Positions 1 through 26,175 of a DNA stretch of 26,379 bases are shown here, in pieces (positions within the stretch are counted from its first letter, which is position 1; the number at the start of each line of letters is the position of its first letter). A program made the translations under genes and the position numbers. The DNA comes from a virus. The stretch lies in IMG/VR virus record IMGVR_UViG_3300037076_000108. The stretch is one strand, 5' to 3'. The notes under the pieces were generated by a model, which saw only the letters and a list, made by a program, of their open reading frames with translations, was not told the origin of the DNA and searched no databases.

Positions 1-1383
1 AGGTGTCGATGCGATAACCATCAACATAAGCTCTACCAGATTCCATTCCAACTGCTAGTTTGTCATTATTTCCCCATTGGTACACATCATTTACTTTAGG
101 AACCAACGGATACCCAGGAGGCGGATTCTGTGGGTCAATCGGGGCCGGTGGATAAATTCCACGATTGATCTTAGCAGGAGTAGGATCTGCAATGATGTAA
201 CTGGTTGTAGTATCAGCGACTTGATTTGGCTTGTAATCTTGATCCAATTGTGCCGTCTTCGTCAGTCCGATGTAATTTGTGATGATGAAGCTCTGTCCTG
301 CGCCTGATCCATTAGACAGGTAGATCTGCATGTTGTTGTACGTGTCATCTAACGCAGACGCAGATGTTGCCAAACTGATCGTGGCGGGTGTTGATGGTAG
401 AACTTCTACAGTCGCTCCAGTTACCACACCAGCAGTGACGAACGATGTATCCAAATGCTCACGCACGTCAATGGCAAAATTGCGTACTGCAAAATCTCCG
501 TTGGCATCGTTCATGCGGGTTGCCATTTCTTTCAATACGATGCTATATGTGTCGGTTGTGACCTTTGCCTGTGTTTGACTGTTGATAAGACGTATCAATT
601 CCACAAAGTTTTGATCGGTACTCGTATCATTGATGTCCTTACTTGTCAGCGTGAGGTCGATCTTATAACGGTGAGCGCCCGGTGCAGCGTAGTTGGTGCT
701 GCTCTGTGCATTGTCATTCAACGAAGGATCTTCTTCGGGCGTAACAATGGATTCTGCTATTTCAAGTCCTACACGACAGCTAACAACATTCGAGTACTTA
801 TTCAACAAAAGGTATTGCCGTTCGACTCGTACAAAGAAGCCCCAAATGTAATAAACACCTTCGTCAATTTGCGCTGATATTGCAAGACCTGTGGGAGCAT
901 TGATTTCGACGGCGGCGAGACCTGTTGTCGAATTGAGTAGAGATATCGTTTCCCCACTGGCGAATACTGTTGCTCCATTTTCTCCTGTATTCAGATACTT
1001 TACATAGATCGTCGGAGAATCGGTGTTGACTGCCGGAACTGAGTAGACAACTTGTGCCTGCAATTTTGTTGTCTGCCCTTGAATAATTTGGTTGTTGAAG
1101 AGTGTCAGATTGATCGGGATTGGAGTAATTCCAAGAAATCCAAACGTCGGTTGCAGCCGCACATAGTTGGTTTTTGCGTCTGTAGCAACCTGCCCCGGAA
1201 TGACCATAGAGCCATGCTGATAGATCGAATTTCCCAAGTACGTCAATTGCTGCTGGAGAATAGTCTGCTCTTGCGTAAGTTCACGGGCTTGTACCGCTAC
1301 AGACGGGCGAAACAAAATGCGATAAAAGTGCTTCGTCTCGTTGTAGTCGTCGTTGTACGGTGTGATGTTGAAATTCAGAGGCA
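1..1383 (-). CDS. Structural protein in the baseplate/tail-fibre module (gp9/gp10 position); partial, start at 1383, 3' end beyond window
   Basis: Minus-strand ATG at 1381-1383, 37 nt after the gp8-like stop. I translated by hand more than 460 codons with no stop down to position 1. The ORF track omits it because there is no stop inside the window. Position after gp6/gp7/gp8 homologues matches the T4 gene order. CTAAATAA motif lies 14 nt upstream. Confidence 0.55.
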
Positions 1384-1422
1384 TGTGTGTTCTATGTGTT
1401 ATTTAGCCGTGTTTCCAAAGGC

Positions 1423-2985
1423 TTAAAACTCGACAACAATCTTGATGTCTTCCACCTGATCGGAAGAACGAGCAATTGGACGGCGATTTTCCAGGTATAC
1501 AATTTCTCCTTCAAACGGAGCCAGATCTGGACTGGTGATGTTCGCTATCTTATAGACGCTAGTTCCATTTGGAGTAACATTCCAATTTGGAGTTATGGTA
1601 GCCGTTCTGTTCACGCCAACATAACCAGAAACCTTTCGTATCTGGCCGCTTCCCGTGCCGCCACTAATAAGCATCGTCTGTCCAGTATAAGCCTCCGAGA
1701 CTGCCGATGCCGAATTTGGAAGTACGATGGTGCTTGATGTTCCGTTTGTTGCGGTGTCGGTCGTGGTCAGAAGCACACCAGACGCCACCGATCCTACAAT
1801 GGTTTCACCAGGAACGAAGCTGCCAACAACTTCTGACAGTCTCACAATTTTGTTGACTGTATCGTAGTCAATAACAACTCCAGTTGTATAACTCGTACTG
1901 CCAGCTACCACTTCATCGGGAACGAATGTAGTTCCGCTCACTGTACCAAACGTCAGGCGAAGCATTTGATCGTAATCAAGCGCAACAGCCGATGTGATGC
2001 CATCTTTCAGCAACGGATTCTTCAAAATTCCAACCCGGCGATAATCGTTCGAGATGGTGAAGGTTCCGTGTTCGTCATAGGTGAGCTTGCTATCAATCAT
2101 CACAAAGAAGCCGCCCAATTCCGATACCGGATCTGCACCGTGACCTGAAAATGGAGAAATAACAGCCTTTGCAACAGCGCCATTTGCTCCTACGCCGCCT
2201 CCAGTGATGACAATGTTGGCCCACGAGTAACCAGTGCCAACACTATTCACAACGATGCTAGTGACGTGCCCACCGCTGATAACTGGTGTCACAAATGCAC
2301 CAGAACCATCGCCCACAATAGTCACTGTAGGTGTGGTTGTATACTGTGTGCCGATGCTTACCATATCAATACGATCAAGCGATCCTGGAACAGCGGCCTG
2401 TTGAACCAACCATTGTTGCGAACCATCATTTGCTGCCAACTTCTGCACCGGGTACCATTCGTTTGTCACAAAGTTCAACACAGAAGCCGAACTTACAGTG
2501 TACATGTATTTCCATTGATAACCGTCTGCTAAAGCAGGCTGTGGAGTTGCCGTCGTGGTACTTGTCGGTTTTACAGTAGAAGCCACGCCGCCACCATTGC
2601 TAATGCACTTATAAACATTGAGCGCATCAGTGACGACAAAAAACGGAGGAAGCCCACCAGAAGGATCAAACAAGTCGATGCCATTCTGATATTGCGTATA
2701 AACTGTACCGGATGACCAATCATACCGTGGCACTACGAGACTCACATTGCTTGGAGAAATGAGCTTTGCGGAGAGCATGTCACGGAACGCAGCGCTTTCT
2801 TCATACTCACAATCAATCGGAGTCGGCGGTGAATTATCATTGCTACCGGCATAAGGAAACGCCCCTTGGTCCCACGGTAACGTGCGCCCGATGAAGAGGT
2901 AAAGATGTTCTGATGGATCTGAGAAACCGCTGATAAACTGATCTGCGGCATAAACTCTCATGTTTGTTGTGACAATTGCAGCCAT
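1423..2985 (-). CDS. Baseplate wedge protein, T4 gp8-like
   Basis: 520 aa. N-terminus (LYLFIGRTLPWDQ...PYAG...VVPRYDWSSGTVYTQY) and C-terminus (GEIVYLENRRPIARSSDQVEDIKIVVEF) align, from my memory of the T4 sequence, with T4 gp8 (IFITFGRSEPWSS...IPRRDWGDTRYPDPY... and GEMIYMENRPPIIMAMDQTEEINILFTF). CTAAATAG motif and GGAGAA SD upstream. Confidence 0.8.
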   Translation of the reverse strand: MAAIVTTNMRVYAADQFISGFSDPSEHLYLFIGRTLPWDQGAFPYAGSNDNSPPTPIDCEYEESAAFRDMLSAKLISPSNVSLVVPRYDWSSGTVYTQYQNGIDLFDPSGGLPPFFVVTDALNVYKCISNGGGVASTVKPTSTTTATPQPALADGYQWKYMYTVSSASVLNFVTNEWYPVQKLAANDGSQQWLVQQAAVPGSLDRIDMVSIGTQYTTTPTVTIVGDGSGAFVTPVISGGHVTSIVVNSVGTGYSWANIVITGGGVGANGAVAKAVISPFSGHGADPVSELGGFFVMIDSKLTYDEHGTFTISNDYRRVGILKNPLLKDGITSAVALDYDQMLRLTFGTVSGTTFVPDEVVAGSTSYTTGVVIDYDTVNKIVRLSEVVGSFVPGETIVGSVASGVLLTTTDTATNGTSSTIVLPNSASAVSEAYTGQTMLISGGTGSGQIRKVSGYVGVNRTATITPNWNVTPNGTSVYKIANITSPDLAPFEGEIVYLENRRPIARSSDQVEDIKIVVEF

Positions 2986-3017: not shown

Positions 3018-6000
3018 TTAAGGTGTGATGTTGCTAATACCAACCTGCATCTGAGTGGTTGTGATCTTGATTCTGGACAAACCAGTTATATTGTGATCGG
3101 TTTCAGCCGTGATTCTGCTGACGCCCGTATGAGTTTTTGGTACCGTCACCCGGACTCTCAAAACACCAGTGCGTGTGCGTGTCGTTGTGGCCCGAATTCT
3201 GGACACACCTAACTCAACCTTGATGGTGGTTTTTCGGATAGACGAGATACCATTTTGTGTCTTCGTTTTGGTCAAGCGAATTTCAGACAAACCAGTTATT
3301 GTTTGTAGTGCGGTGGCCTGAATTCTGGTTGCACCAATTCGAGTCTTTGTGTTGATAGCCTGAATTCTCGACACACCCAAGTCTGTCATCTGTCTGGTTG
3401 TAGCTTGGATTCTGGACACACCAGTATGTGTCTTGTTTGTGACAATTGCGAGCTTCGATGTTCCATGCTGTACGTGCGGAGTCGTGATCTGGATTCTGGA
3501 GACGCCGAAAGATGCTGGATTATGTCTTACCTGAATTCTCGACAAACCAGTCTGACCTTGGAAGTTGGAATGGCGAAGTGCTGAGACGCCAGTCAGATTA
3601 TGATGTGTTGTTACGTAAATTCTGGACACACCGCTTTGGGTGTATGTTCTGGTCTGACGAATACGAGAAATTCCACTCTGGAACTTTCTCTTTACAATCC
3701 AGTAGTGACCGCCCTGTGTTTGCTGTTCAGCAGTACGCAAGATACGAGTCGTTCCAAATTGATTCTTGATGGTGGTATTGTGAAGAATGACGCCTCTTTC
3801 AGAAGCCAGCATCGTGCGAAGCGCCTGATACGCCGAATCAATCTCAAAATCGTATATCGCCCGATCATAGAAAATTGCGTAGACCAATGTCCCATTGAAG
3901 TACCCCACCGGAGACGAAGACCCGGAACTGGAAGCCTGCTTGTACTCATTGGTGCCGAAAGTTGTTCTTGCATACAAAGATGCCGGTTGCTCTGTTGGTG
4001 CATAGTTTGACGACGGTTTTCCAAAGTACCAACCTGTCGTATTGATCGTAGGAACTACAGGATAATTCGAGTACGTTACGGAATCTGCTCTACTATTGCT
4101 AACATTACCACTCAACTTTCCTTTGTCGAAACGGAGAACGGCCATGAAGTAGTTGCCATCTTTTATAGTCCCTGTTGGGAAGTCTACCGATTTTGCAGTG
4201 TTGTTGTACTGAACCCGGAAGGAGACGCCACCGCCAGCCCGCACGTCTACAGAAAATCCATTGTCGGACGACGAGTTGATACAATTGACAATCGACATGT
4301 TCGTAGAAATGTCGGGACACAAAGCGATGACAAGAACTGAGCACTGAGACAAGTTTAGTGGTACGCCGGTCGCATTAACAATTTCACTATGCGACGAATC
4401 AAGCTGTACGCCAGCGACCACCCACGTGCCATCAATTGTTTCAACTAGAATGGTATTGCCTAGAACGCCGTCGAACTCGCCCATAGAATTCGGACTGACA
4501 TTGTAGACGATTTGCGGGTCCATACCTTCAAGGAAGTTGTACTCTACAACATCTCCAATTGTCGGAATGGTGCCTGGAGTGTAGATTGCCACATCACTGT
4601 CTACACAAAGATTTGAGTGTTTGGTTTCCGGCGAAACAATCAAGTCGGAGAGAACGATATTTTGAAGATTGCCGATCTGCGTGTTGCCGAACTGCGACCA
4701 GTAGTCTTCATTCGGTGGCGGATACGTCTCACCGAAGCCATCAAACGGCGGGAAGCCCACGAATCTGAATTGTGAGATGGATGCTCTGCTCTGGCCGATA
4801 GGTCCAACCAAGGTCGATGATAGAGCGGATTGAATTTGAATATTGGCATCAGGCGAAATTTTTGTGCGCTGGTCTGGGAAGTTTACAAACGAACCGATGG
4901 TGCGGTTCTTTAGGTTTGCGATCTGTGTGTTTCCCGGCCCAGTGGGAGACCAATAATTTTGATTTGGATACGGATACAAAACGTCCCACTTCACATTCGG
5001 TGGGAAGGCAATGAACTTCATCCAGTCAAAATCTTTGTTCTTTGAGCCGATAACTTTCGGAATGATCGTGTTCAGTTGTCTGGTGTAGATTACCCGTCCA
5101 GTATCATTGACTTCCCAAGGTTCATAAAGAGCAGCTTCAATGAGCGCATATGCGGCTTGTAGTTCCGCCTTTTGACCTACAGTCAACGTGCTGTACGTAT
5201 ATGGTAAGTTGGTGTAGGTAACATATGTGCGCCATGCTTGATCTAGTTCCGCTGTGTACAGAGTGTGGAACCGCACCAACTTATTTTCGATCTGAAGAAT
5301 GTTTTCACGAATGATTCCCAAAAAGTTCGTTTCGGGTTTTGACTCTAAAACTACAGAGCCGAACATCATCATGCCAGCCGGATGCAACAGCGCCTTTACC
5401 ACATCACGATACTTGTCAATGGTCTCACCCACTCGAATGTCGTAAGAGAAGTCTTGCCAGTAGTATGAGTCCTGAATGATCTTATTTGAGCTTGCAAAAC
5501 TGTCCGGTGTTGTTGGGAATCCGCCGACGCCGCCGTCTCGTCCCTGCAACCATCGGCCAGCAGTTTGTGCAACGATGCCCAACACAGGAGGTAGCACGCC
5601 GCCCGATCCCTTTTCTGTATGAATGGTAACGGAAGGTGTTGCCAAAAATCCAAGACCGAAGTCAATAATTGCGATGGACTTGATGCCGCCACGCACGTGT
5701 GTGATCGAATATTGTGTAGTGCTGTCTGGAATGGTGATCCACGGAAGATCTACCGTCGCTACTTTCGTTGTTCCGTTGTATGACACAACAGTTCTACGCT
5801 GACCAACTCCGGTTCCGCCAACAAGAGTGATTTCATCACCCACAAAGAAGTCATCAGTTGAAATTTCGTTGGACGACAACAGAATCTCATTTGGGTTTAG
5901 AAGATCGGCATCGGTGTACGAAGAGTGTACATCCGAGAAGAAGTACATGCCCGGAATACAAATAGCGTCATCCATCGGATTGCCGTCTGTGTTGATCGGC

Positions 6001-7214
6001 GCTGTCGCTGGCCCGAAGAATGGCTGAAGATAATAGACCGAAGGTGGAATGCCGCAACTACCAGTAAAATAGGTCTGAAAAATAGACGTGATAATTGCTT
6101 GCGCTGACGACAATGATCCGCCGCCATCAATCGTGATAAGCTCACCTACTTTATAGTTGTCTCCTGGTGTGAGGATCGGCAAATGCTGCAAAAGCTGGTA
6201 AGCAGATTCGTAACGGAGTTGATTATACGGTTCCAATAAGTCCGTCGTAGAACCCAAATCGGTTTGTGGCGGCGGTGGAACGTTATAGACGATCTTAACC
6301 TGTTCTGGAAAGCCAGTATTCGGATCAATTTGGAAGCCGCCAACGATGCTCGAAAGCGTCATTGTCGTGATCGTGCCTTGCGGAATCAACTGCTGTGTGA
6401 CTGACTCGACTTTTGCCGTGGCACCAGAGTAAACACCAACCAAGTTGCGATTCAAATAGTCAAATGTCAAATCCGTAGTCGTCGTCTTCATTACGTTCTG
6501 GACGAACCAAATACCATCAGACGCACGGAACAAGTCAACTTTCGGGTAGTACAGTTCAATCTCTTCGCTGAACAGGCAACGGAAGATGAACCTAAAAGAG
6601 TTCTCTGTGCCTCTCGCCTGATAAAACTGCTTGATGTGCTTGAGAACTTCACGAGGGTTGGCTAAGATCGTACCAGGAATGAGGTACATGAATTCATCTC
6701 TGAAGTATTGGATGAACCGATCTAAGGTGTAGTCAATGTCTCTGTACTCGACCAACTTTTCGGGACTGTAAGAGTCTCGAATTTCCATCAGTGTGTTTGG
6801 CGGCGGGATGTTGTTGGGATCGAATGTGTCAACCAAAGTCACGGTCCAGGTTGTTGGATCATAACTCTTGATCTTGTGCGTATGCCCCTTTGCTGGACCG
6901 TTCAAGCACACAATGAACATATTTCGGTAAGCATTCAAATATGTTGCGGCCTGGGTGATCGTCTCTGTGATTGGCGCTGATGCTTGGGCGACTGCTTTTT
7001 GTGCATCTACGGCTGCTTGTGTAGTCAGAACAACAGTGTTGACCGACGTACCGACAACTTTTCCATTCCATACCGGCGTTCCGAACGTTTCCAGCCATTC
7101 GTAATAGGCTTTCAGAAACGAGACGAACATCGGATCGGTTTCCTGTACGAAGTCAGGAAGCTGGCCCGAAATTATCTGTGATATTGTCCTTGGTGTTTTT
7201 GGAATCGTCGGCAT
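3018..7214 (-). CDS. Giant baseplate wedge protein, T4 gp7-like, with C-terminal 11-aa tandem repeat array
   Basis: 1398 aa. Segment FYQARGTENSFRFIFRCLFSEEIELYYP matches T4 gp7 FYSTKGIEASYKFLFKVLYNEEVEIEIE (recalled). Gene order gp6-gp7-gp8 as in T4. The last ~190 aa are ~17 repeats of TGVSRIQxTTx. Start tightly coupled to gp6-like stop (TAA-GGGGTAAGGA-ATG). Confidence 0.8.
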   Translation of the reverse strand: MPTIPKTPRTISQIISGQLPDFVQETDPMFVSFLKAYYEWLETFGTPVWNGKVVGTSVNTVVLTTQAAVDAQKAVAQASAPITETITQAATYLNAYRNMFIVCLNGPAKGHTHKIKSYDPTTWTVTLVDTFDPNNIPPPNTLMEIRDSYSPEKLVEYRDIDYTLDRFIQYFRDEFMYLIPGTILANPREVLKHIKQFYQARGTENSFRFIFRCLFSEEIELYYPKVDLFRASDGIWFVQNVMKTTTTDLTFDYLNRNLVGVYSGATAKVESVTQQLIPQGTITTMTLSSIVGGFQIDPNTGFPEQVKIVYNVPPPPQTDLGSTTDLLEPYNQLRYESAYQLLQHLPILTPGDNYKVGELITIDGGGSLSSAQAIITSIFQTYFTGSCGIPPSVYYLQPFFGPATAPINTDGNPMDDAICIPGMYFFSDVHSSYTDADLLNPNEILLSSNEISTDDFFVGDEITLVGGTGVGQRRTVVSYNGTTKVATVDLPWITIPDSTTQYSITHVRGGIKSIAIIDFGLGFLATPSVTIHTEKGSGGVLPPVLGIVAQTAGRWLQGRDGGVGGFPTTPDSFASSNKIIQDSYYWQDFSYDIRVGETIDKYRDVVKALLHPAGMMMFGSVVLESKPETNFLGIIRENILQIENKLVRFHTLYTAELDQAWRTYVTYTNLPYTYSTLTVGQKAELQAAYALIEAALYEPWEVNDTGRVIYTRQLNTIIPKVIGSKNKDFDWMKFIAFPPNVKWDVLYPYPNQNYWSPTGPGNTQIANLKNRTIGSFVNFPDQRTKISPDANIQIQSALSSTLVGPIGQSRASISQFRFVGFPPFDGFGETYPPPNEDYWSQFGNTQIGNLQNIVLSDLIVSPETKHSNLCVDSDVAIYTPGTIPTIGDVVEYNFLEGMDPQIVYNVSPNSMGEFDGVLGNTILVETIDGTWVVAGVQLDSSHSEIVNATGVPLNLSQCSVLVIALCPDISTNMSIVNCINSSSDNGFSVDVRAGGGVSFRVQYNNTAKSVDFPTGTIKDGNYFMAVLRFDKGKLSGNVSNSRADSVTYSNYPVVPTINTTGWYFGKPSSNYAPTEQPASLYARTTFGTNEYKQASSSGSSSPVGYFNGTLVYAIFYDRAIYDFEIDSAYQALRTMLASERGVILHNTTIKNQFGTTRILRTAEQQTQGGHYWIVKRKFQSGISRIRQTRTYTQSGVSRIYVTTHHNLTGVSALRHSNFQGQTGLSRIQVRHNPASFGVSRIQITTPHVQHGTSKLAIVTNKTHTGVSRIQATTRQMTDLGVSRIQAINTKTRIGATRIQATALQTITGLSEIRLTKTKTQNGISSIRKTTIKVELGVSRIRATTTRTRTGVLRVRVTVPKTHTGVSRITAETDHNITGLSRIKITTTQMQVGISNITP
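3036..3602 (-). repeat. About 17 tandem 33-bp coding repeats (consensus on + strand approx ctgRattctSgacacacc) encoding TGVSRIQ-type 11-aa units
   Basis: The period is visible directly in the DNA and in the translated C-terminus of the 1398-aa ORF (GVSRIQITT / TGVSRIQATT / LGVSRIRATT ...). Confidence 0.8.
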
Positions 7215-7224
7215 TCCTTACCCC

Positions 7225-9030
7225 TTACGCATTCGCCAAAACCATTACTGATACGTCTGTCGGTTGGATGAACAAAATATTATTCCTAACCGGGATGATG
7301 TCATTCTGTTGCGGAGTCATTGTCAAGGAGACGTTGCCAGCACTATCCACTTGATATGGCATGAATTCCTGCAATGTAATCTCCCCTGTTGTGTAATTTA
7401 TCGTGCCGCAAGACGCACGCACTACGGCGTCTGGAATACCAATGCCACTCTGAACCAACTGTACATTCCCATTACTGTCATCTTTTAGGTTGTAAGTATA
7501 CCCATTCACATACGGGACCAATAACTTTGGATCATGAACGACAACAAAGCTGGACGACGAAAGCGTCCCTGGCACAACCGGATTGAAAAAGTTCAAATCG
7601 TAGTTCGCAATCAAGTCCAACGCTGGCTTGAAAAGTTTTTTAATCTGAAGCGTGCTCAAATTGTTTGTGATACTTGAGTCGCTGCTGTCAATAGCGGACA
7701 GGAATTTGGAATAGCGAAACTCCAAGTCGAACTTATCCAAGTTTAATGCGGCATAGTTGATAATGGAGTTGTACGCTGCGTTTCTGATATCTCCTTCTGT
7801 CTTGAAGGTATTTGCCGGATTGTACTTCACGATACAATTGACAATGATGAAGGTATAATCCGGGTCGATGAATTGTGGGATGACAGAAACAATGTTACGT
7901 GGGCGGATGAGGTTGGACAAAACCAACGACTTCGCCTCTTCGGTCACAACGAATCCATTCACCGGCTTAATCGAAATGAAGACCTTACCATATTGCGGCG
8001 GTACGTTCTCTTCGCCGCCCCATACAGTTACAGAGTCGGCATTTGAATAGTTCTCTGTAACCTGAAGCACATAGTCTGCCGCCGTGACTGCACGCCCCTG
8101 CGTCTCAAAATTTTTCGGAGCGGAGAAACGAATTTCATCTGTGGTCTCTGCGTCCAATCCACCAGCAGCCGGTACCAGTGTCACGACCGTTGTAAGGTTG
8201 GCAGGATAGCCAGCCAAAGGAATAGTCGGAGAAAAGGACGATGCGCCGTTTGCAATAGGGCCGTCCGAAATGACGTAATCTACGATGACGATGTTTCCAT
8301 CCACCAAGGCACTACCAATAACACCATCACCGAATTTGATTTCAAACTGCTGGTTTTCAACTTCTTGAAGGAAGTACGCATTTGTATCAACCCTCAATTC
8401 GAGCAAGTTATCAGCCAAAACATAACTCGTCAACGCCGTATTAGTTATTGAATGCTGAACACGAACGACTATCTGGCTGGTGTCAATGCTCGAACTCGGC
8501 AGCAAAAATCTCTGATTTGGTACTGTAGAGTCCACGGTGATTCTGTAAGTGTATGGAATACCATTGACTAATGTTACATCCGGGAATACGAATTTGCCGT
8601 TTTGAACTGTGGTTCCATACGCCCGATCCGTAATGAATGTATAGACCTTGCCATCCACATTAGAAGAAAACGTGGAATTCTCTTCGATGACTGCACCCAT
8701 TGCGTTGTCGTTAGGTGTGATCGTAATACTTACCGTCGCCTGTGCAGATGTTACGGAACGTGGCGTGTAATTCATCATCTTCGCCAGCGAGACAACAGAA
8801 GACCGAAGGTTGGCCGAATCCAGGAACATTTCGTTGGCGATCATATTCATGTAGAAAGCATTGTAGTGTGTGTTATACGCCAAGATGTCTAACAATACCG
8901 ACAGGCCAGCGCCATCGAAGTCGTAGTCCTTGAACTGCGTCTGTGAACGAAGGTAATCCCGGAGAGATACTTTGATTGTGTCGAAATCCAAATACGAGAC
9001 AAGAAGTTTTGATGAGTTAATTGTTGACAT
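7225..9030 (-). CDS. Baseplate wedge protein, T4 gp6-like (baseplate J family)
   Basis: 601 aa. N-terminal DYDFDGAGLSVLLDILAYNTHYNAFYMN...ANLRSSVVSLAKMMNYTPRS is characteristic of gp6/gpJ-like baseplate proteins. Sits between the gp25-like and gp7-like genes. Confidence 0.75.
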   Translation of the reverse strand: MSTINSSKLLVSYLDFDTIKVSLRDYLRSQTQFKDYDFDGAGLSVLLDILAYNTHYNAFYMNMIANEMFLDSANLRSSVVSLAKMMNYTPRSVTSAQATVSITITPNDNAMGAVIEENSTFSSNVDGKVYTFITDRAYGTTVQNGKFVFPDVTLVNGIPYTYRITVDSTVPNQRFLLPSSSIDTSQIVVRVQHSITNTALTSYVLADNLLELRVDTNAYFLQEVENQQFEIKFGDGVIGSALVDGNIVIVDYVISDGPIANGASSFSPTIPLAGYPANLTTVVTLVPAAGGLDAETTDEIRFSAPKNFETQGRAVTAADYVLQVTENYSNADSVTVWGGEENVPPQYGKVFISIKPVNGFVVTEEAKSLVLSNLIRPRNIVSVIPQFIDPDYTFIIVNCIVKYNPANTFKTEGDIRNAAYNSIINYAALNLDKFDLEFRYSKFLSAIDSSDSSITNNLSTLQIKKLFKPALDLIANYDLNFFNPVVPGTLSSSSFVVVHDPKLLVPYVNGYTYNLKDDSNGNVQLVQSGIGIPDAVVRASCGTINYTTGEITLQEFMPYQVDSAGNVSLTMTPQQNDIIPVRNNILFIQPTDVSVMVLANA

Positions 9031-9076: not shown

Positions 9077-9601
9077 TTAATGTATCGTTCTCCCGATAAC
9101 AACACGAGATAATCCCATCGCCTCACACCATTGTTTAAGACCAACCCTTTCTATACGCCTACCGTCAAGATGAATGGCTACAAAAGGTTTTTCCTTTGAT
9201 TCAGCAATTCTTTCACAACTTTCGGAAGTAAATTTTCGTCCTATGCCCGCCTGTCGAATTTTCTCTTTTGCTTCTGGAGTATGCTTTCTCCCTTCCATAA
9301 CTCCATCACCACCAACTGAACTGTTGTATCCGGCGACAAAAGTATTCTGTTCTGATATGGCGGTACGCTCCATATCTTTGGCTTCGTTCGCAGACCAACA
9401 CACTGCCACAATTTCATGTGTCCAGCAATCCGTTCCGTACTTTCGGATAGCGTTCCAAAGTTTCACCGTTTTAGTCGTTTTTCTTGATGGAATACGGGCC
9501 AATTTTATATGTTCTCTCCATCGCTCTTCCATTGTTTTGGAAGAGTATCCAATATATGCCTTTCCGGTCATCGTGTTAGTATGCTTGTAAATGGTGTACA
9601 T
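9077..9601 (-). CDS. GIY-YIG homing endonuclease (Seg/I-TevI-like), free-standing
   Basis: N-terminal IYKHTNTMTGKAYIGYSS...RWREH is a GIY-YIG motif. Inserted between the gp25-like and gp6-like genes. Its start overlaps the gp25-like stop (TAATG). Confidence 0.8.
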   Translation of the reverse strand: MYTIYKHTNTMTGKAYIGYSSKTMEERWREHIKLARIPSRKTTKTVKLWNAIRKYGTDCWTHEIVAVCWSANEAKDMERTAISEQNTFVAGYNSSVGGDGVMEGRKHTPEAKEKIRQAGIGRKFTSESCERIAESKEKPFVAIHLDGRRIERVGLKQWCEAMGLSRVVIGRTIH

Positions 9602-9996
9602 TATCTCAATCTCTGGAGGAAGAAGGAAATGTTCTGCACCTGAGTGATGTTCAGCACATAAAAGGTGATGTTCACATTGTACCCGTCTTCGTTATAGTTC
9701 TCCGTTACAACCACACTTTGTAACTTCGCTCTTGGCTCAAAGTTCTGAATCACATCCGTGATCGACCGTTGGATGCTCAAAGCTGTGATGCTTGTAATGT
9801 TCTCAAACAACATCGCCGTCACGTTGCACCCAATCTCAGAATGGAAGGGGCGCTCATAATGCTTTGTGAGCACCAGATTCATGACAGAGGCTTTGACGGC
9901 ATCAAAATCGTACAAGATACCGATGTCCTTTTTCACGGGGTTCGCAATAAAGGACAGATTCAAGTCGCTGTAACGTTGGTAAATGTTCTGTGGCAC
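9601..9996 (-). CDS. Baseplate wedge protein, T4 gp25-like (GPW/gp25 family)
   Basis: 131 aa, same size as T4 gp25. ERPFHSEIGCNVTAMLFENITSITALSIQRSITDVIQNFEPRA aligns with T4 gp25 SRPFDPEFGCDLSDQLFENMTPLTADTVERNIESAVRNYEPRI (recalled). GTG start follows a CTAAATAGGAG motif. Confidence 0.85.
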   Translation of the reverse strand: MPQNIYQRYSDLNLSFIANPVKKDIGILYDFDAVKASVMNLVLTKHYERPFHSEIGCNVTAMLFENITSITALSIQRSITDVIQNFEPRAKLQSVVVTENYNEDGYNVNITFYVLNITQVQNISFFLQRLR

Positions 9997-10048: not shown

Positions 10049-10339
10049 CTAACCGCCGTTGGCAAAGACGTTTGGAGAGCCTACAGCATCGAAATCGCCG
10101 CAGGAAATTTGATCGCCAATTCGAGCAACTGGTTTGTTGTTTGCAAAGACGGTCGGAGACCCCGTAGCCTGGAGACCATCGTGGCAAACCGGGCCGCAAC
10201 AATGCGTCGGCCAATGGTCGCCTACACGGTGAATTGGAATGGCATTTGCGAAAACATTTGGACTAGCGAGATCATTTGGGCGGGCGGGGAAACAGCCGTG
10301 GCCGGTGCTCATGTCACCAAGACGAACGATATTTGGCAT
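10049..10339 (-). CDS. PAAR-repeat spike-tip protein (T4 gp5.4-like)
   Basis: 96 aa, Gly/Cys/His-rich, with repeated SPNVFANxxPIHRVGD / SPTVFANNKPVARIGD / SPNVFANGG units typical of PAAR domains. Lies immediately downstream of the gp5-like gene. Confidence 0.8.
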   Translation of the reverse strand: MPNIVRLGDMSTGHGCFPARPNDLASPNVFANAIPIHRVGDHWPTHCCGPVCHDGLQATGSPTVFANNKPVARIGDQISCGDFDAVGSPNVFANGG

Positions 10340-10644: not shown

Positions 10645-12045
10645 TTAGCAGTCTTTTTGCGATGCCAAAATTGGTGATGGATCTCCCTTCGTTTCCTTCA
10701 CCGGATCTGAATACGATTCACTTCGGGATTCCGTCATGCCCAATGATGCCGGGAACGGTGGAATGTTTGGTGCCGATGGACCAGATGGAGTTGCATGTTG
10801 GCTGACGCCGGAATTCCAATGCACAGCCGGGGCATCGCCAGAAAGCGTGCCGCCGCCCGTCATGCTGAATGAACCACCAGCCGATTGCACAATGGAACCA
10901 CCAGCAGCATCAGTCATCGAACCACCGGCATCACGAGTGCTGCTTCCGCCAGCTTTCATAGTCTGGCTTCCACCCACTTCAAGATCGTCACTTCCTGCAA
11001 TCTTCACTGTGCGACTGCCGCCGATGTCCGTAAGATAATCTCCCTTCACCTTCTCGGTGTAGTTGCCTTGGACGTGAACATTCAAATCTCCATCAACCTG
11101 TAAGTTTGCATTAGACCGGCAATAGATGTTAGCTTCACCATCTACTGTGATGTTCATGTTGTTTTGAAAGTGTGAATACGAATTTTCCATCGTAACTTCA
11201 AACTTCTTACCGACAATTTTGATGACGAGGTTTCCTTCTTGGTCAATTTCGATTCGAGTCAGTGTACGATGGGCTAAGTGAATGCGCTCTGCGCCGGGTG
11301 TGTCATCAATTTCGATAACGTGGCCAGATTCAGATTCATAGACGTGATTGTACGGATATTGCGCCGCATAAGCGGACGGCGGCTCAACCCATTTTCTTCC
11401 AGGCTTCGGATGTACAAAGGCAATAGGAACACCACCGAATTCTGGACCTGGACGGCCAATGTCACGTTGCCGTTTCTGGACGCCGATAATAGTATCTTCA
11501 ACGTTTTCCGCACGGGCGAGACGATTCACATCTGATTCACCAATGACGCAGCCCCACGGATGAGTCTGTCTCGGATAGAGCGATGCGGTGCTTTCGTTTT
11601 GAACTTGTGCGCCGGAACCATCATTCGGATAGAAGCGTGACTTGATTTTACGTGGCGCTGTGTCTGTGTTGTGAAATGGCTTGCCCGGATCATAGAAACC
11701 AATACCCGGTTGCGGAGCTTCTTCCGGGATACCAGCGATGGTGCCAAGAATGATTGGCTCTTGAGCGCTTTGATTGTCTTTGAAAAATCCAAACACCCAT
11801 GTACCTTCGGCGGGGCCGGTCGGTGAATGTCCCAAGCCGTTCATTCCCTGATTCCAGGTGATTGGCTGATAGACGTAGGCCCAATGCAATTCGCACGTCG
11901 GTATCAACTGCTTGTCTTCTGTGTGAGCACCGAGAATGCGTACTCGTAGCCGCCCAAGTTTTTTGGGGTCTCGCCGGTCTTCGACAACGCCTACCCACCA
12001 GTAGAAGCTGTCCTTTCCCATGAAATTCGTTTCTGATTTTGCCAT
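10645..12045 (-). CDS. Baseplate hub / central spike protein, T4 gp5-like (OB-fold N-domain plus C-terminal beta-helix, no lysozyme domain)
   Basis: 466 aa. N-terminus FYWWVGVVEDRRDPKKLGRLRVRILGAHTED is a gp5/VgrG-type OB fold. C-terminus has GGSxT-type repeats (VGGSQTMKAGGSSTRDAGGSMTDAAGGSIVQSAGGS) like the gp5 triple beta-helix. Followed by the PAAR gene. Confidence 0.8.
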   Translation of the reverse strand: MAKSETNFMGKDSFYWWVGVVEDRRDPKKLGRLRVRILGAHTEDKQLIPTCELHWAYVYQPITWNQGMNGLGHSPTGPAEGTWVFGFFKDNQSAQEPIILGTIAGIPEEAPQPGIGFYDPGKPFHNTDTAPRKIKSRFYPNDGSGAQVQNESTASLYPRQTHPWGCVIGESDVNRLARAENVEDTIIGVQKRQRDIGRPGPEFGGVPIAFVHPKPGRKWVEPPSAYAAQYPYNHVYESESGHVIEIDDTPGAERIHLAHRTLTRIEIDQEGNLVIKIVGKKFEVTMENSYSHFQNNMNITVDGEANIYCRSNANLQVDGDLNVHVQGNYTEKVKGDYLTDIGGSRTVKIAGSDDLEVGGSQTMKAGGSSTRDAGGSMTDAAGGSIVQSAGGSFSMTGGGTLSGDAPAVHWNSGVSQHATPSGPSAPNIPPFPASLGMTESRSESYSDPVKETKGDPSPILASQKDC

Positions 12046-13907: not shown

Positions 13908-13911
13908 AATT

Positions 13912-13985
13912 TGGAGCGGAGTGCGAGACTCGAACTCGCATCTTGAGACTGGCAGTCTCAGGCACAGCCCTTATACCAACCCCGC
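13912..13985 (-). tRNA. tRNA-Gly(GCC)
   Basis: Manual fold: acceptor GCGGGGT/ACTCCGC, T-arm GCGAG-TTCGAGT-CTCGC, anticodon arm TGAGA-CTGCCAG-TCTCA (anticodon GCC). 74 nt with encoded CCA. Confidence 0.7.
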
Positions 13986-14000
13986 AAAGGGAATAAATTT

Positions 14001-14074
14001 TGGAGCGGACGGCGGGACTCGAACCCGCATCTCAAGATTGGAAATCTTGGGCACAACCTTTATACCACACCCGC
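14001..14074 (-). tRNA. tRNA-Gly(UCC)
   Basis: Paralogue of the previous tRNA on the same scaffold: acceptor GCGGGTG/CGTCCGC, T-arm GCGGG-TTCGAGT-CCCGC, anticodon arm CAAGA-TTTCCAA-TCTTG (anticodon UCC). 74 nt with CCA. Confidence 0.7.
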
Positions 14075-15670: not shown

Positions 15671-16051
15671 CTATACGCCACCATTCTCCAGGTACTCAAT
15701 CTTGATCGTGCCGTCTTTCAGACCCTCGTCCACCATCCGGTCAACACGAGCTTTGATTTGTTCTGGAGTTTCTGGGATTTGTTGCCCCATTCGCTTGGCG
15801 CATTCGACTTTGTGCCATTGCTTAAACTTTGGGGTGTTGGCAAGACGCACGAGCGCATCTTCCCGGTTTCTTGTGTTACTTCGGTGGTCTCTACCTTCTC
15901 CGACCGCACCGGAAGCCGTATGGATCAAACGGACGCCACTATTGCTGGTATCCTTGCCGCCACCGCCATGCCCGCCTACGCTAAAGGTCTGCATTTCCAG
16001 ATCCTTCATCGTGACGGAAAATAAAAGTTCTTGCTTCTTCTTTTCACTCAT
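15671..16051 (-). CDS. RF-1 domain / ArfB (YaeJ)-like peptidyl-tRNA hydrolase family protein with degenerate GGQ motif
   Basis: SGAVGEGRDHRSNTRNREDALVRL aligns with E. coli ArfB [27 protein letters not shown] (recalled). At the catalytic GGQ position the sequence reads SVGGHGGGGKD. GGAGTGAAATC SD. Extended -10 promoter 85 nt upstream. Confidence 0.7.
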   Translation of the reverse strand: MSEKKKQELLFSVTMKDLEMQTFSVGGHGGGGKDTSNSGVRLIHTASGAVGEGRDHRSNTRNREDALVRLANTPKFKQWHKVECAKRMGQQIPETPEQIKARVDRMVDEGLKDGTIKIEYLENGGV

Positions 16052-23707: not shown

Positions 23708-23786
23708 TGGTAGCCGTGGTGGGACTCGAACCCACACTGTTCAGGTTTTGAATCTGTTGTCTCCTGCCAAATTGGACTACACGGCT
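23708..23786 (-). tRNA. Atypical tRNA or tRNA-like, paralogue of the previous one; best fold gives anticodon CAA with a weak 3-bp anticodon stem
   Basis: 79 nt. Perfect acceptor AGCCGTG/CACGGCT and T-arm GTGGG-TTCGAGT-CCCAC. The anticodon region ACAGA-TTCAAAA-CCTGA pairs poorly. Possibly a pseudo-tRNA. Confidence 0.4.
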
Positions 23787-24044
23787 ATAAACTTGTTCAG
23801 GAACTTTCACGATGAAGGGTAGTGTTTGAACCTCCGACCCAAACCTACCGTACTCAGAATTGCGTAGCATCTTAACAATACGCAATTTCCGGTAATACGA
23901 CTTCACTTCTTCTCGTGTTACTTCCACAAATGATTTCATAATTTGTTGAGCCAGGGACGGACCATCGAACCCGTATCGGTTGCCTTTCAGCACGCCCAAT
24001 GTAGCGCCCGGTTTTACCTTTGTTAAACTACCCTGACCCAAGTT

Positions 24045-24132
24045 TGGTGGCCGGGGTGGGACTCGAACCCACACACCCTTGCGGATACCAGCTTTTGAGG
24101 CTGGCGTGTCTACCAGTTCCATCCACCCGGCC
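24045..24132 (-). tRNA. tRNA-Leu(CAA)
   Basis: 88 nt, class II. Acceptor GGCCGGG/CCCGGCC, GGTAGAC D-loop, anticodon arm CCAGC-CTCAAAA-GCTGG, long variable arm, T-arm GTGGG-TTCGAGT-CCCAC, CCA. Confidence 0.75.
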
Positions 24133-24310
24133 AAAACTCTTTGAAAACTGCAAGAACAGTGAGGCTTGCCATTTCTAGCAAGAAGGTGAAGGCTTGCAGT
24201 TTTCAAAATTCATTCCTATCGAAACAAAATCACAACAAATGCCAAGAGCACAACCAAACCCGCTATCAGCGTCAGGGTGCTATCTACCGGCCCTTGTCGA
24301 TCAAACCTGC

Positions 24311-24457
24311 TCATAAATTCGCTTCGATCTCTGACCAGCATTCCTTACAGCGTGCGAATAGATCGCCGTAGCGGTGGCGCATCTCACGGTGGCAGTCACA
24401 ACACCACCAGACCAACTCACATGCCTCTTCGCCCTTCTCTTCGCACGTACAAGGCAT
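24311..24457 (-). CDS. Cys-rich mini-protein (48 aa)
   Basis: MPCTCEEKGEEACELVWWCCDCHREMRHRYGDLFARCKECW. The ATG lies 2 nt after the stop of the upstream zinc-ribbon gene. Confidence 0.35.
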   Translation of the reverse strand: MPCTCEEKGEEACELVWWCCDCHREMRHRYGDLFARCKECWSEIEANL

Positions 24458-24459
24458 TT

Positions 24460-24654
24460 CTACCACTGGTTCCACGGTACCTCGTCTCTGGAAAAACGAA
24501 CCGTCTTCGGATGCTTCGACGTATACAGCCGACTCTGAAACTTTCTGGAGAGAATGATCTCTTCTACAGAAGCCGGTCTCGGCTCGTTCTCTTTCGGAAG
24601 CGTGCCGCAATTTGGACAGCGCCGCCCAACGAACTCTTCATCACAACACTTCAT
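24460..24654 (-). CDS. Zinc-ribbon mini-protein (64 aa)
   Basis: MKCCDEEFVGRRCPNCGTLPKENEP... starts 6 nt after the tRNA-Leu(UAG) 3' end. Confidence 0.45.
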   Translation of the reverse strand: MKCCDEEFVGRRCPNCGTLPKENEPRPASVEEIILSRKFQSRLYTSKHPKTVRFSRDEVPWNQW

Positions 24655-24660
24655 AAAATC

Positions 24661-24747
24661 TGGTGGCCAAGGTGGGAGTCGAACCCACACGCCCTTTCGA
24701 GCACTTGCTTCTAAGGCAAGCGAGACTGCCAATTCCTCCACTCGGCC
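24661..24747 (-). tRNA. tRNA-Leu(UAG)
   Basis: 87 nt, class II. Acceptor GGCCGAG/CTTGGCC, anticodon arm CTTGC-CTTAGAA-GCAAG, long variable arm, T-arm GTGGG-TTCGACT-CCCAC, CCA. Confidence 0.75.
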
Positions 24748-24752
24748 AAACT

Positions 24753-24947
24753 TTAAGAAAACACATTCTGCGCCTGATTGTACGCCCAATCTGGCGGGTC
24801 TTCACACAGCGTCCATGCAAAATGAATCGCTGACAACTGCAAACTCAAAATCCTCGTCTTTGTGGTTTCGGGAATTTTGCTTTCCTTCACGTAAAGATCT
24901 TTGATGCGCTCGTACTGAGCCTGGACTTCATTCTCCGGTCGAATCAT
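24753..24947 (-). CDS. Hypothetical small protein (64 aa)
   Basis: GAGGAA SD before the ATG. Overlapping stop/start (ATGA) with the upstream HNH gene. Confidence 0.5.
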   Translation of the reverse strand: MIRPENEVQAQYERIKDLYVKESKIPETTKTRILSLQLSAIHFAWTLCEDPPDWAYNQAQNVFS

Positions 24948-25285
24948 AATTCCTCTACCAATTCATTATACTCCTGTTCTTCCAATTGTCTATCGGCCTC
25001 CAGGAGCATCCGCTCTTCGTAATGATGGATCGCATGACAATTGGCACAGACGCATTCGCATTTCGCAATTTCTTCTTTCACTTGCTTGAGCGACTTCTGC
25101 AACATCACCGCAGAACCAATCTCGAATTTTTTCTCGCCTGCGCCTGTATGATGGAATTGCAAAGCAGCCGGATGGTTGAACCCACATCTACTGCATGACA
25201 GCGTTTTCTTATACTCTGCAATCCACTGACGAACTTCTGCACGTTTTGCCGCTCGTCTTATTGCGGCGGCTGGACTCTTAGACAT
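24944..25285 (-). CDS. HNH-family endonuclease
   Basis: 113 aa. CSRCGFNHPAALQFHH...KCECVCANCHAIHH is a CxxC...HH...CxxCH arrangement. Confidence 0.6.
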   Translation of the reverse strand: MSKSPAAAIRRAAKRAEVRQWIAEYKKTLSCSRCGFNHPAALQFHHTGAGEKKFEIGSAVMLQKSLKQVKEEIAKCECVCANCHAIHHYEERMLLEADRQLEEQEYNELVEEL

Positions 25286-25310
25286 TACTCATATCTATCA
25301 TCCAAGAAAA

Positions 25311-25386
25311 TGGTCAGGGAGGTTGGAGTCGAACCAACGGCATCTCGCTTCCAAAGCGAGAACTCTGGCCTCTGAGCTACTCCCTG
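25311..25386 (-). tRNA. tRNA-Pro(UGG)
   Basis: 76 nt. Acceptor CAGGGAG/CTCCCTG, D-stem GCTC/GAGT, anticodon arm CTCGC-TTTGGAA-GCGAG, T-arm GTTGG-TTCGACT-CCAAC, CCA. Confidence 0.7.
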
Positions 25387-25501
25387 ATGGTCGGACAGGG
25401 GAGAATGGTTACTCCCTAACTACGATGCTTAACATGTGGTCATTCGTAGTCGTTACCGCTGTAAGGGCGGGATAGGTTCAAACAACCCCTGCTGTCCTAG
25501 T

Positions 25502-25593
25502 TGAGTAGATGAGACTTGAACTCACAAAAGCGCTTTCGCCTCACGCTCACCGGGTTGCGAATCCGGCGTGTTTCCCACTTCCACCACTACTCA
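25502..25593 (-). tRNA. tRNA-like element, class-II length, non-canonical anticodon arm (identity undetermined, possible pseudo-tRNA)
   Basis: Acceptor TGAGTAG/CTACTCA, T-arm GTGAG-TTCAAGT-CTCAT, hairpinned long variable arm. Anticodon region CCGG-ATTCGCAAC-CCGG gives either a 9-nt loop or an A:C mispair. No encoded CCA. The HNH gene stop lies inside its 5' acceptor strand. Confidence 0.35.
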
Positions 25594-26069
25594 AACACTC
25601 TTCGATCTCGTCTCGTCTTCAATGTGTGGCAATTAGAACAAAGTAATTGAAGATTTTCTAACCGATTATCACGATGGTCGCCGTTAATGTGATCCAACTC
25701 AGTCACCTTTTCTCCAAACCATTCCGTCAATCCACATTGGGCGCACACATCAATCAACATATTCTCACGAATCAATCTTTTTTTAAGAGCATCCGAATTC
25801 ATCGAAACACAATTTTTTATCAAATATGATTCAATGTTCTTCTTCGGACCAGTTCGTTTACCCTTACTCCATGCTTGGCCGGTGAAATGAGAAGTATCAA
25901 TCAAAAATTTTTCTGCCAGCAATCGTAGGTACGACTGTAATCCAGTAGACCCTTTTCGATCTAACTTCCGGCATACATCAGCCCAAGAAGAACTTCCATT
26001 CACTACCACACTGAGAGATTCCTTCGTGTGTTTATGATATTTTGGCATACGCAGATTATTTATACTCAC
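25587..26069 (-). CDS. HNH homing endonuclease
   Basis: 160 aa. C-terminal CAQCGLTEW...LDHINGDHRDNRLENLQLLCSNCH is an HNH motif. GTG start inside a hairpin whose loop carries TATAAATA. Confidence 0.8.
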   Translation of the reverse strand: MSINNLRMPKYHKHTKESLSVVVNGSSSWADVCRKLDRKGSTGLQSYLRLLAEKFLIDTSHFTGQAWSKGKRTGPKKNIESYLIKNCVSMNSDALKKRLIRENMLIDVCAQCGLTEWFGEKVTELDHINGDHRDNRLENLQLLCSNCHTLKTRRDRRVFE

Positions 26070-26087
26070 TGCGTATGCCAGATTGAT

Positions 26088-26175
26088 TGGTCGCCGGGGT
26101 GAGGCTCGAACTCACACGCCCTTTCGGACACCAGACTCTCATTCTGGCTTGTCTACCAAATTCCAGCACCCGGCG
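26088..26175 (-). tRNA. tRNA-Leu(GAG)
   Basis: 88 nt, class II. Acceptor CGCCGGG/CCCGGCG, GGTAGAC D-loop, anticodon arm CCAGA-ATGAGAG-TCTGG, long variable arm, T-arm GTGAG-TTCGAGC-CTCAC, CCA. Confidence 0.7.

Follow-up and report, generated by a model that had tools for sequence, protein, structure and literature searches.

The array of the gp7-like protein

The window, by which we mean the whole 26,379-nt stretch of DNA of an uncultured T4-like phage analysed here (IMG/VR virus record IMGVR_UViG_3300037076_000108), encodes on its minus strand a protein which, judged from its sequence, is a gp7-like baseplate wedge protein and which ends in a long threonine- and arginine-rich tandem repeat (Table 1). 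An earlier note on this DNA had placed such a repeat at the C-terminus of a gp7-like open reading frame (ORF), at positions 3018-3602; both the repeat and the gp7 assignment are real, while the period and the coordinates were wrong. The N-terminal region of the ORF matches the Pfam Baseplate_wedge profile PF23786 (37.6 bits against a cut-off of 27) and also phrog_17744 'baseplate wedge subunit' (E=2e-64), and the consensus of its homologues agrees with the N-terminus MPTIPKTPRTISQ. The synteny is of the T4 type: the gene order is gp5-PAAR-gp25-GIY-YIG-gp6-gp7-gp8-DUF4815 with all neighbours on the minus strand, and the ORF lies between the gp6 and gp8 homologues on the same strand, as it does in an orthologous locus (L003) and in T4.

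The true period of the array is 14 amino acid residues, or 42 nt, and not 11 residues or 33 bp, as had been proposed. The autocorrelation of the amino acid sequence at lags 14, 28 and 42 reaches 0.295, 0.286 and 0.267 (z=11.5, 10.9 and 9.6 versus shuffled sequences), whereas at lags 11, 22 and 33 it stays at background (z=-0.9, -1.9 and -0.7; 0.072 at lag 11). Likewise, the nucleotide autocorrelation peaks at lags 42, 84 and 126 (z=8.2, 8.4 and 7.0; 0.403 at lag 42) and is absent at lags 33 and 66 (z=0.0 and 0.1; 0.269 at lag 33), and copies in the DNA are spaced by multiples of 42, or by 45 across the single 15-residue unit. The motif G-x-[ST]-x-[ILV] starts at residues 1181, 1195, 1209 and so on to 1378, and 14 of the 15 canonical intervals measure exactly 14 residues, the remaining one 15. 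The previously noticed sequence TGVSRIQxTTx survives as a conserved 11-residue core of the unit, which in full has 14 residues; the correction from 11 to 14 matters to any model or profile built from the array.

The array spans residues 1154-1398 (about 245 residues), which corresponds to 3021-3755 of the window, or to 3021-3674 if only canonical units are considered. It comprises 17 full units, with glycines at residues 1154, 1169, 1181, 1195 and so on to 1378, followed by a half-unit. As the two atypical first units and the terminal half-unit belong to the array, its extent is 3021-3755 rather than 3018-3602; the latter interval holds only 13.5 units, so that the seventeen copies counted previously are about right for the extended array. 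The canonical units follow the motif G-[VLI]-S-R-I-x-x-T-T-x-x-T-x-x; in the window, G1 and an aliphatic residue 5 are present in 16 of 16 units and R4 in 12 of 16. The motif of the atypical units, G[AH][YF][WY]IVKR[KQ], is kept in the relatives P0002, P0003, P0004 and P0007, and these two units are a candidate N-terminal cap; at the other end, most of the orthologues that bear a tail have the half-unit in the form G[VI]S[NH]I[ST].

The individual units have diverged considerably: their mean pairwise identity is 36% at the amino acid level and 47% at the nucleotide level (maximum 69%), no two are near-identical, and the longest exact DNA repeat in the array is 15 nt. Tandem Repeats Finder, run on the whole window, reported no array at the locus, so the DNA period is hardly one that is obvious by eye. 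At lag 42, the first and second codon positions have identities of 0.47-0.54 and the third of 0.26-0.37; because the first two positions are conserved above the third, selection acts on the protein and the repeat is old, in agreement with the suggestion of the earlier note that the units are imperfect, old and selected. The array is thus real, under selection and conserved as protein. In composition it is rich in threonine (19%), isoleucine (11%) and valine (7%), which together make up 37%, and it carries a net charge of +32 (isoelectric point 12.0), as opposed to -35 (isoelectric point 4.8) for the body of the protein. The tails were basic in all 11 cases examined.

Table 1. Features of the window, in order of position
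Feature	Position	Strand	Remarks
DUF4815 protein, partial (N-terminal part)	1-1402	-	directly downstream of gp8
gp8-like wedge protein	1423-2985	-	directly downstream of the gp7-like ORF, 32-nt gap; PF09215, phrog_438 E=2e-111
gp7-like baseplate wedge protein	3018-7214	-	1398 aa, stop codon 3018-3020; from ORF list and translation
Terminal half-unit GISNITP	3021-3041	-	aa 1392-1398
15 canonical units	3042-3674	-	aa 1181-1391; 14 of 14 aa, one of 15 aa (1265-1279)
Two atypical N-terminal units, GTTRILRTAEQQTQG and GHYWIVKRKFQS	3675-3755	-	aa 1154-1168 and 1169-1180; kept in close relatives
Linker NTTIKNQF	3756-3779	-	aa 1146-1153, 8 residues, predicted lectin domain to array
Predicted ConA-like lectin jelly-roll domain	3780-4550	-	about aa 889-1145; AlphaFold2 pLDDT about 80-95 (model of aa 870-1398)
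Stretch matching Pfam Baseplate_wedge profile	6531-6722	-	aa 165-228
gp6-like wedge protein	7225-9030	-	directly upstream; PF21379, phrog_219 E=1.5e-161
GIY-YIG endonuclease	9077-9601	-	
gp25	9601-9996	-	
PAAR protein	10049-10339	-	
gp5	10645-12045	-	
tRNA genes (12 in all)	13912-14074, 19627-20548, 23473-26175	-	
RF-1-domain (peptidyl-tRNA hydrolase-like) ORF	15671-16051	-	small
Vault-like ORF	16201-18747	-	848 aa
Dual-specificity phosphatase-like ORF	19178-19615	-	
R2K-clade ATP-grasp ORF	21990-22757	-	
HNH endonuclease	25587-26069		

The domain preceding the array is confidently modelled by AlphaFold2 as a jelly roll, probably of the ConA-like lectin type, with high values of the predicted local distance difference test (pLDDT). 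A Foldseek search with this model retrieved the BoNT Hc-N domain, CBM40 and the tailspike of cyanopodophage Pan3 at E of about 1e-7, with TM scores of only 0.25-0.31 for the full query, unmodelled tail included, and a Pfam scan of residues 839-1153 gave no match.

Orthologues and the wider repeat family

Seven orthologues of the gp7-like protein have no tail and end exactly at ...RG[IV]xLP, i.e. at the end of the predicted lectin domain, while in the tail-bearing orthologues the final proline is replaced and followed by 15 to 22 units and a half-unit, as counted by a register-aware parse that was adopted after a hidden Markov model built from the window units had under-counted. A comparison of unit number among relatives, which the earlier note had recommended, thus reveals variation, including complete absence. 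When the conserved N-terminal 640 residues are arranged in a neighbour-joining tree, the tail-bearing proteins form one clade and the tail-less proteins are basal, with the exception of tail-less P0012, which falls inside the clade; this tentative topology suggests one gain of the tail and possibly one loss. Because orthologues exist without it, the array would be dispensable for baseplate assembly. Divergence is faster in the tail than in the body, with identities to the window protein of 51 versus 79% in P0002, 44 versus 77% in P0003 and 41 versus 68% in P0004. Several units are nonetheless orthologous by position, for instance GTSKLAIVTNKTH / GTSKFAIVTNQTV / GTSLIVFQTDQTQ, and the differences in length between relatives sit towards the distal end of the array. 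Three relatives in IMG/VR, each from a different sample, share a count of 15.5 units. In P0013 and P0015 a globular domain of about 165-190 residues is inserted ahead of the last 1.5 units; in P0005, four extra 14-residue units occur within the lectin-like body domain (residues 1075-1133), besides the C-terminal array.

The orthologues are encoded on metagenomic contigs, the longest of which measures 405 kb. Megablast of the window gave no match, and tblastn matches of the gp7-like query in cultured phages cover only residues 1-630 at less than 40% identity, so by sequence comparison the window appears to have no close cultured phage.

The repeat itself is by no means confined to wedge proteins. 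A phmmer search with the tail among 1.84 billion representatives of protein clusters returned 389 matches with E<=1e-3, 248 with E<=1e-10 and 70 with E<=1e-30, the best being 8.6e-119; since scores are inflated when the query is a repeat, the figures should rather be taken to count the clusters that bear an array. The consensus of 3023 units from this family is G-[KV]-[AS]-R-I-[TQ]-x-T-T-x-[QRK]-T-[QI]-T, where G1 is fixed by definition and an aliphatic residue at position 5 was required for a unit to be selected (I 75%, V 18%, L 6%); among the positions outside this rule, R4 is conserved in 79% and T12 in 73% of the units. Units of the window agree with the family consensus at G1, [AS]3, R4, [IVL]5, T8-T9 and T12. 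The proteins are 300-2400 residues long, with up to 48 strictly 14-spaced units in succession and up to about 62 units per protein, and in many of them a long array separates an N-terminal domain from a small C-terminal one. The N-terminal domain common to several members is homologous to gp13 of Streptomyces phage Hiyaa, annotated as a minor tail protein. The partner domains comprise LamG_3 (in 15 of the 108 proteins scanned), Kelch, LRR, fn3, Ig, DUF2341, the podophage fibre-tail adaptor Gp77 and minor-tail PHROGs, and in one protein the array is joined to a PAAR domain, a borderline match (27.6 bits against a cut-off of 27). Arrays of the family usually end with a GV[AS][NSH]I unit, as does the gp7 tail with its GISNITP.

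Four genomic contexts of the family were sampled: a T4-like fibre region (L001), a phage with a P22-type portal and an SU10-type adaptor (L002), the vicinity of T4 neck protein and gp15 homologues (L034) and a contig with an SU10-type portal (L035). The family occurs in myo-, podo- and sipho-type contexts, in connection with tails, fibres and necks. At 2719-3297 of L034 there is a 192-residue protein which is nearly all repeat, ends with GVSNIA and lies near the position of T4 fibritin (wac). In L001, which is a T4-like metagenomic contig, an in-frame TGA at 10985-10987 interrupts the array gene, precisely where a GVS[R]IQ unit would have its arginine (CGA to TGA). The following ORF takes up the array in frame with 15 more units, and a nonsense mutation, an error in sequencing or read-through could each account for the interruption.

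Searches of Pfam, NCBIfam and PHROGs with the tail and with regular members of the family yielded no significant repeat model. Matches to CLZ, Laminin_II and HpHbR were dismissed as coiled-coil models that fit a periodicity of 7 or 14. In some members about five units align to positions 185-258 of phrog_25538, a profile of unknown function, which gave no match to the window tail itself. Sequence and profile searches of the PDB gave no match to the repeat, a tblastn search with the family member P0121 found nothing in 50,697 records of cultured phages, and a search for homologues with an eight-unit profile returned six short proteins only. We found no description of the repeat in the literature, which is not in itself proof of novelty; the family appears to be undescribed in the libraries searched.

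Structure and role of the array

As the best explanation we propose, at what we would call even probability, that the array is a shaft-like C-terminal appendage of a gp7-type wedge protein, built of a widespread and so far unnamed 14-residue phage-appendage repeat and forming on each wedge an accessory, rigid, β-rich and cationic fibril for contact with the envelope or for spacing. The gp7 array would then be a wedge-protein fusion of a β-rich phage appendage repeat, which is a known kind of element. Each unit would contribute a short β-strand/turn element whose invariant aliphatic residue, at position 5, is buried, and stacking of the units would give a rigid rod, which would be about 8 nm long (17.5 x 4.8 Å) if one unit made one β-rung, and which might be capped by the two atypical first units and the terminal half-unit. 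By analogy with T4, in which gp7 is present once per wedge in a (gp6)2-gp7 core, six such cationic fibrils might project from the baseplate periphery and serve as accessory spacer or adhesion elements touching anionic envelope polymers, their length being tuned over evolutionary time as whole units are gained or lost close to the distal end. That the fibril would be accessory and face outwards is suggested by the tail-less orthologues, the faster divergence of the tail, the insertions of distal domains and the adhesion-type partners in the family.

Features of the unit are compatible with β-structure. The semi-apolar positions are 2, 5, 7, 9 and 13, with the turn-formers P, D or N at position 10, and such a pattern would suit a strand-arc-strand rung. 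Mutual information reveals i,i+2 couplings within the unit (4-6, 7-9, 9-11 and 12-14), which fit β-strands. The AlphaFold2 monomer run on the window protein drew the array as a single-layer meander of 12-residue strands, which we rejected because its pLDDT was below 45 and the invariant aliphatic residue 5 would be exposed on every strand; between adjacent units, mutual information gave no signal of the antiparallel register (position p with 17-p) that this meander implies.

Several observations weigh against the fibril proposed above. The pLDDT of the array was only 25-45 for the window tail and 35-48 for the very regular member P0121, from shallow alignments of 19-22 sequences, and as monomeric β-solenoids are usually modelled confidently by AlphaFold2, such values argue against a simple monomeric solenoid. 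The covariation of equal positions in different units does not fall off with lag and therefore reflects ancestry and not contacts. If about 15 arginines were stacked in register, the electrostatic cost would be high unless counter-ions were present, and a role in host contact is suggested only by the charge, the variability and the partner domains. The idea of a β-rich appendage put forward in the earlier note accordingly stays plausible, given the composition of the array and the fusion of its relatives to tail-fibre, minor-tail and lectin domains, but its AlphaFold2 fold is of low confidence in both runs (pLDDT 25-48 overall). The note had tied the failure of this idea to a constant unit number among relatives combined with a disordered prediction; as the number varies, the idea is not refuted.

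A rather unlikely alternative is that the array is an obligate oligomeric fibre shaft, either a homotrimeric β-spiral or β-helix as in other phage fibres or a heteromer with further array-bearing proteins of the same phage, and that the gp7 tail folds only when paired with other chains. Extended strands of low confidence are typical of trimeric fibre shafts run as monomers, many members have the classic fibre architecture, and the small array-only protein beside the neck and gp15 homologues lies near the position of fibritin, which is trimeric in T4. Against this, three tails would not be adjacent if gp7 occurred once per wedge as in T4, neither the window nor the 20 kb surrounding an orthologue contains a second array-bearing ORF, PAAR, to which one member is fused, is a monomeric spike tip, and the hydrophobic pattern with G at position 1 is unlike the adenovirus shaft consensus. 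The gp7 and PAAR contexts argue for a fold that may exist as a single chain, the fibre-like architecture of many members and the behaviour in AlphaFold2 for an oligomer. The main functional rival, which we consider distinctly unlikely, dispenses with host contact altogether: the polycationic tail would act as an internal latch or strut, lying on the acidic periphery of the baseplate or bridging wedges and stabilising the pre-contraction state. The opposite charges of tail and body would suit such a role, as would the conserved cap-like units at both ends and, after the apparent single gain, a unit number that in most relatives varies little, between 15 and 18. It is at odds, however, with the orthologues that have the same wedge body and no tail at all and with the faster divergence of the tail, while the globular, lectin-like domain inserted near the tip in two relatives and the adhesion-type partner domains of the family fit an outward display.

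It is very improbable that the array is merely an intrinsically disordered, low-complexity basic linker without a defined fold. The low pLDDT in both runs, the polar composition and the lack of a PDB or Pfam match would be expected of such a linker, but not a 14-residue register kept free of indels over as many as 48 consecutive units and in hundreds of clusters, nor the conservation of R4 and T12, the predominance of β-branched residues and the conserved caps. Hardly credible is a DNA contingency locus, in which units of 33 or 42 bp slip during replication and rapidly switch the length of the fibre, even though unit number does differ among relatives: the units, diverged as they are in nucleotide sequence and with only short exact repeats, lend no support to the slippage-prone length variation envisaged in the earlier note, Tandem Repeats Finder is silent, the three relatives from different samples share the same number of units, and the differences fall on old, diverged units. 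A bolder form of the fibril proposed above, which we hold to be unlikely, is that the GxSRI unit adopts a structurally new β-fibre fold, namely a monomeric, arginine-laddered polycationic rod that requires the counter-charges of polyanions to become ordered; it would be a general appendage shaft in all three tail morphotypes and, on gp7, would form six cationic whiskers making the first electrostatic contact between baseplate and envelope.

Receptor-binding and spacing appendages set the host range of phages, and their shafts use a handful of known repeat folds. As at least 389 clusters carry this repeat with neither a Pfam or NCBIfam model nor a solved structure, it would stay unannotated in metagenomic phage genomes, where a profile of the repeat would flag tail and fibre genes of uncultured phages. 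Its fusion to the single-copy gp7 provides a defined setting for the question of a monomeric fold and for that of the role of a polycationic baseplate fibril.

Other features of the window and comparison with known systems

Besides the wedge genes, the window contains part of a giant DUF4815 protein, which has 2261 residues in the orthologous locus and is conserved across all related loci, and a GIY-YIG homing-endonuclease gene inserted between gp25 and gp6; in T4, segC occupies a comparable position between genes 5 and 6. A further ORF matches the shoulder of the Major Vault Protein (PF11978, E=1e-19) and the vault repeat (PF17795, E=1e-7), which is unusual for a phage, and has no match among PHROGs. 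Scattered between the 12 tRNA genes (two for Gly, three for Ser, five for Leu and one each for Pro and Ala) there are small ORFs and an HNH endonuclease; among the tRNA clusters lie a small ORF with an RF-1 domain, an ORF of the dual-specificity phosphatase type and one of the R2K clade of ATP-grasp proteins. An 89-nt 'repeat' reported by Tandem Repeats Finder at 13910-14074 corresponds simply to the two adjacent tRNA-Gly genes.

Among known shafts, the triple β-spirals of the adenovirus fibre and reovirus sigma1 are homotrimers built of repeats of about 15 residues, in which a turn with G or P follows an apolar x-φ-x-φ-x-φ strand. The array resembles them as a short periodic β-rich repeat, variable in unit number, in which a glycine is conserved and apolar positions alternate, and which would make the shaft of an attachment appendage; however, its period is 14 and not 15-16, the glycine of the family stands six residues after the apolar triplet, the PDB offers no match, and the gp7 context argues against a homotrimer. 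The ice-binding β-roll of Lolium perenne (PF21300), which we mention as a lead only, is monomeric, with coils of 14-15 residues and flat threonine-rich faces, so that a rung of 14 residues is sterically possible. The best relative, P0118, matches this profile below threshold (E=0.068, 13.7 bits against a cut-off of 30) and the window tail does not match it at E<=10; moreover, the present repeat differs in being polycationic with a conserved arginine, and AlphaFold2 gave no such roll.

Within the GxSRI family, the window array shares the period, the consensus and the GVxNI-type terminal unit (phmmer E down to 1e-119), but its units are more degenerate, it ends the protein instead of being followed by a C-terminal domain, and it is carried by a wedge protein and not by a free fibre or minor tail protein. 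With T4 gp7 the protein shares the N-terminal wedge region, above the PF23786 threshold, and the T4-like gene order gp5/PAAR/gp25/gp6/gp7/gp8, a GIY-YIG endonuclease being present within the gp5-gp6 interval of both (segC in the T4 order 5, segC, 5.4, 6, 7, 8). T4 gp7 (from NC_000866), with its 1032 residues, has no 14-residue repeat (zero unit matches, z=0.2 at lag 14), as had been stated in the earlier note, and it is to a wedge protein of this kind that the window protein adds a predicted ConA-like lectin domain and a basic array.

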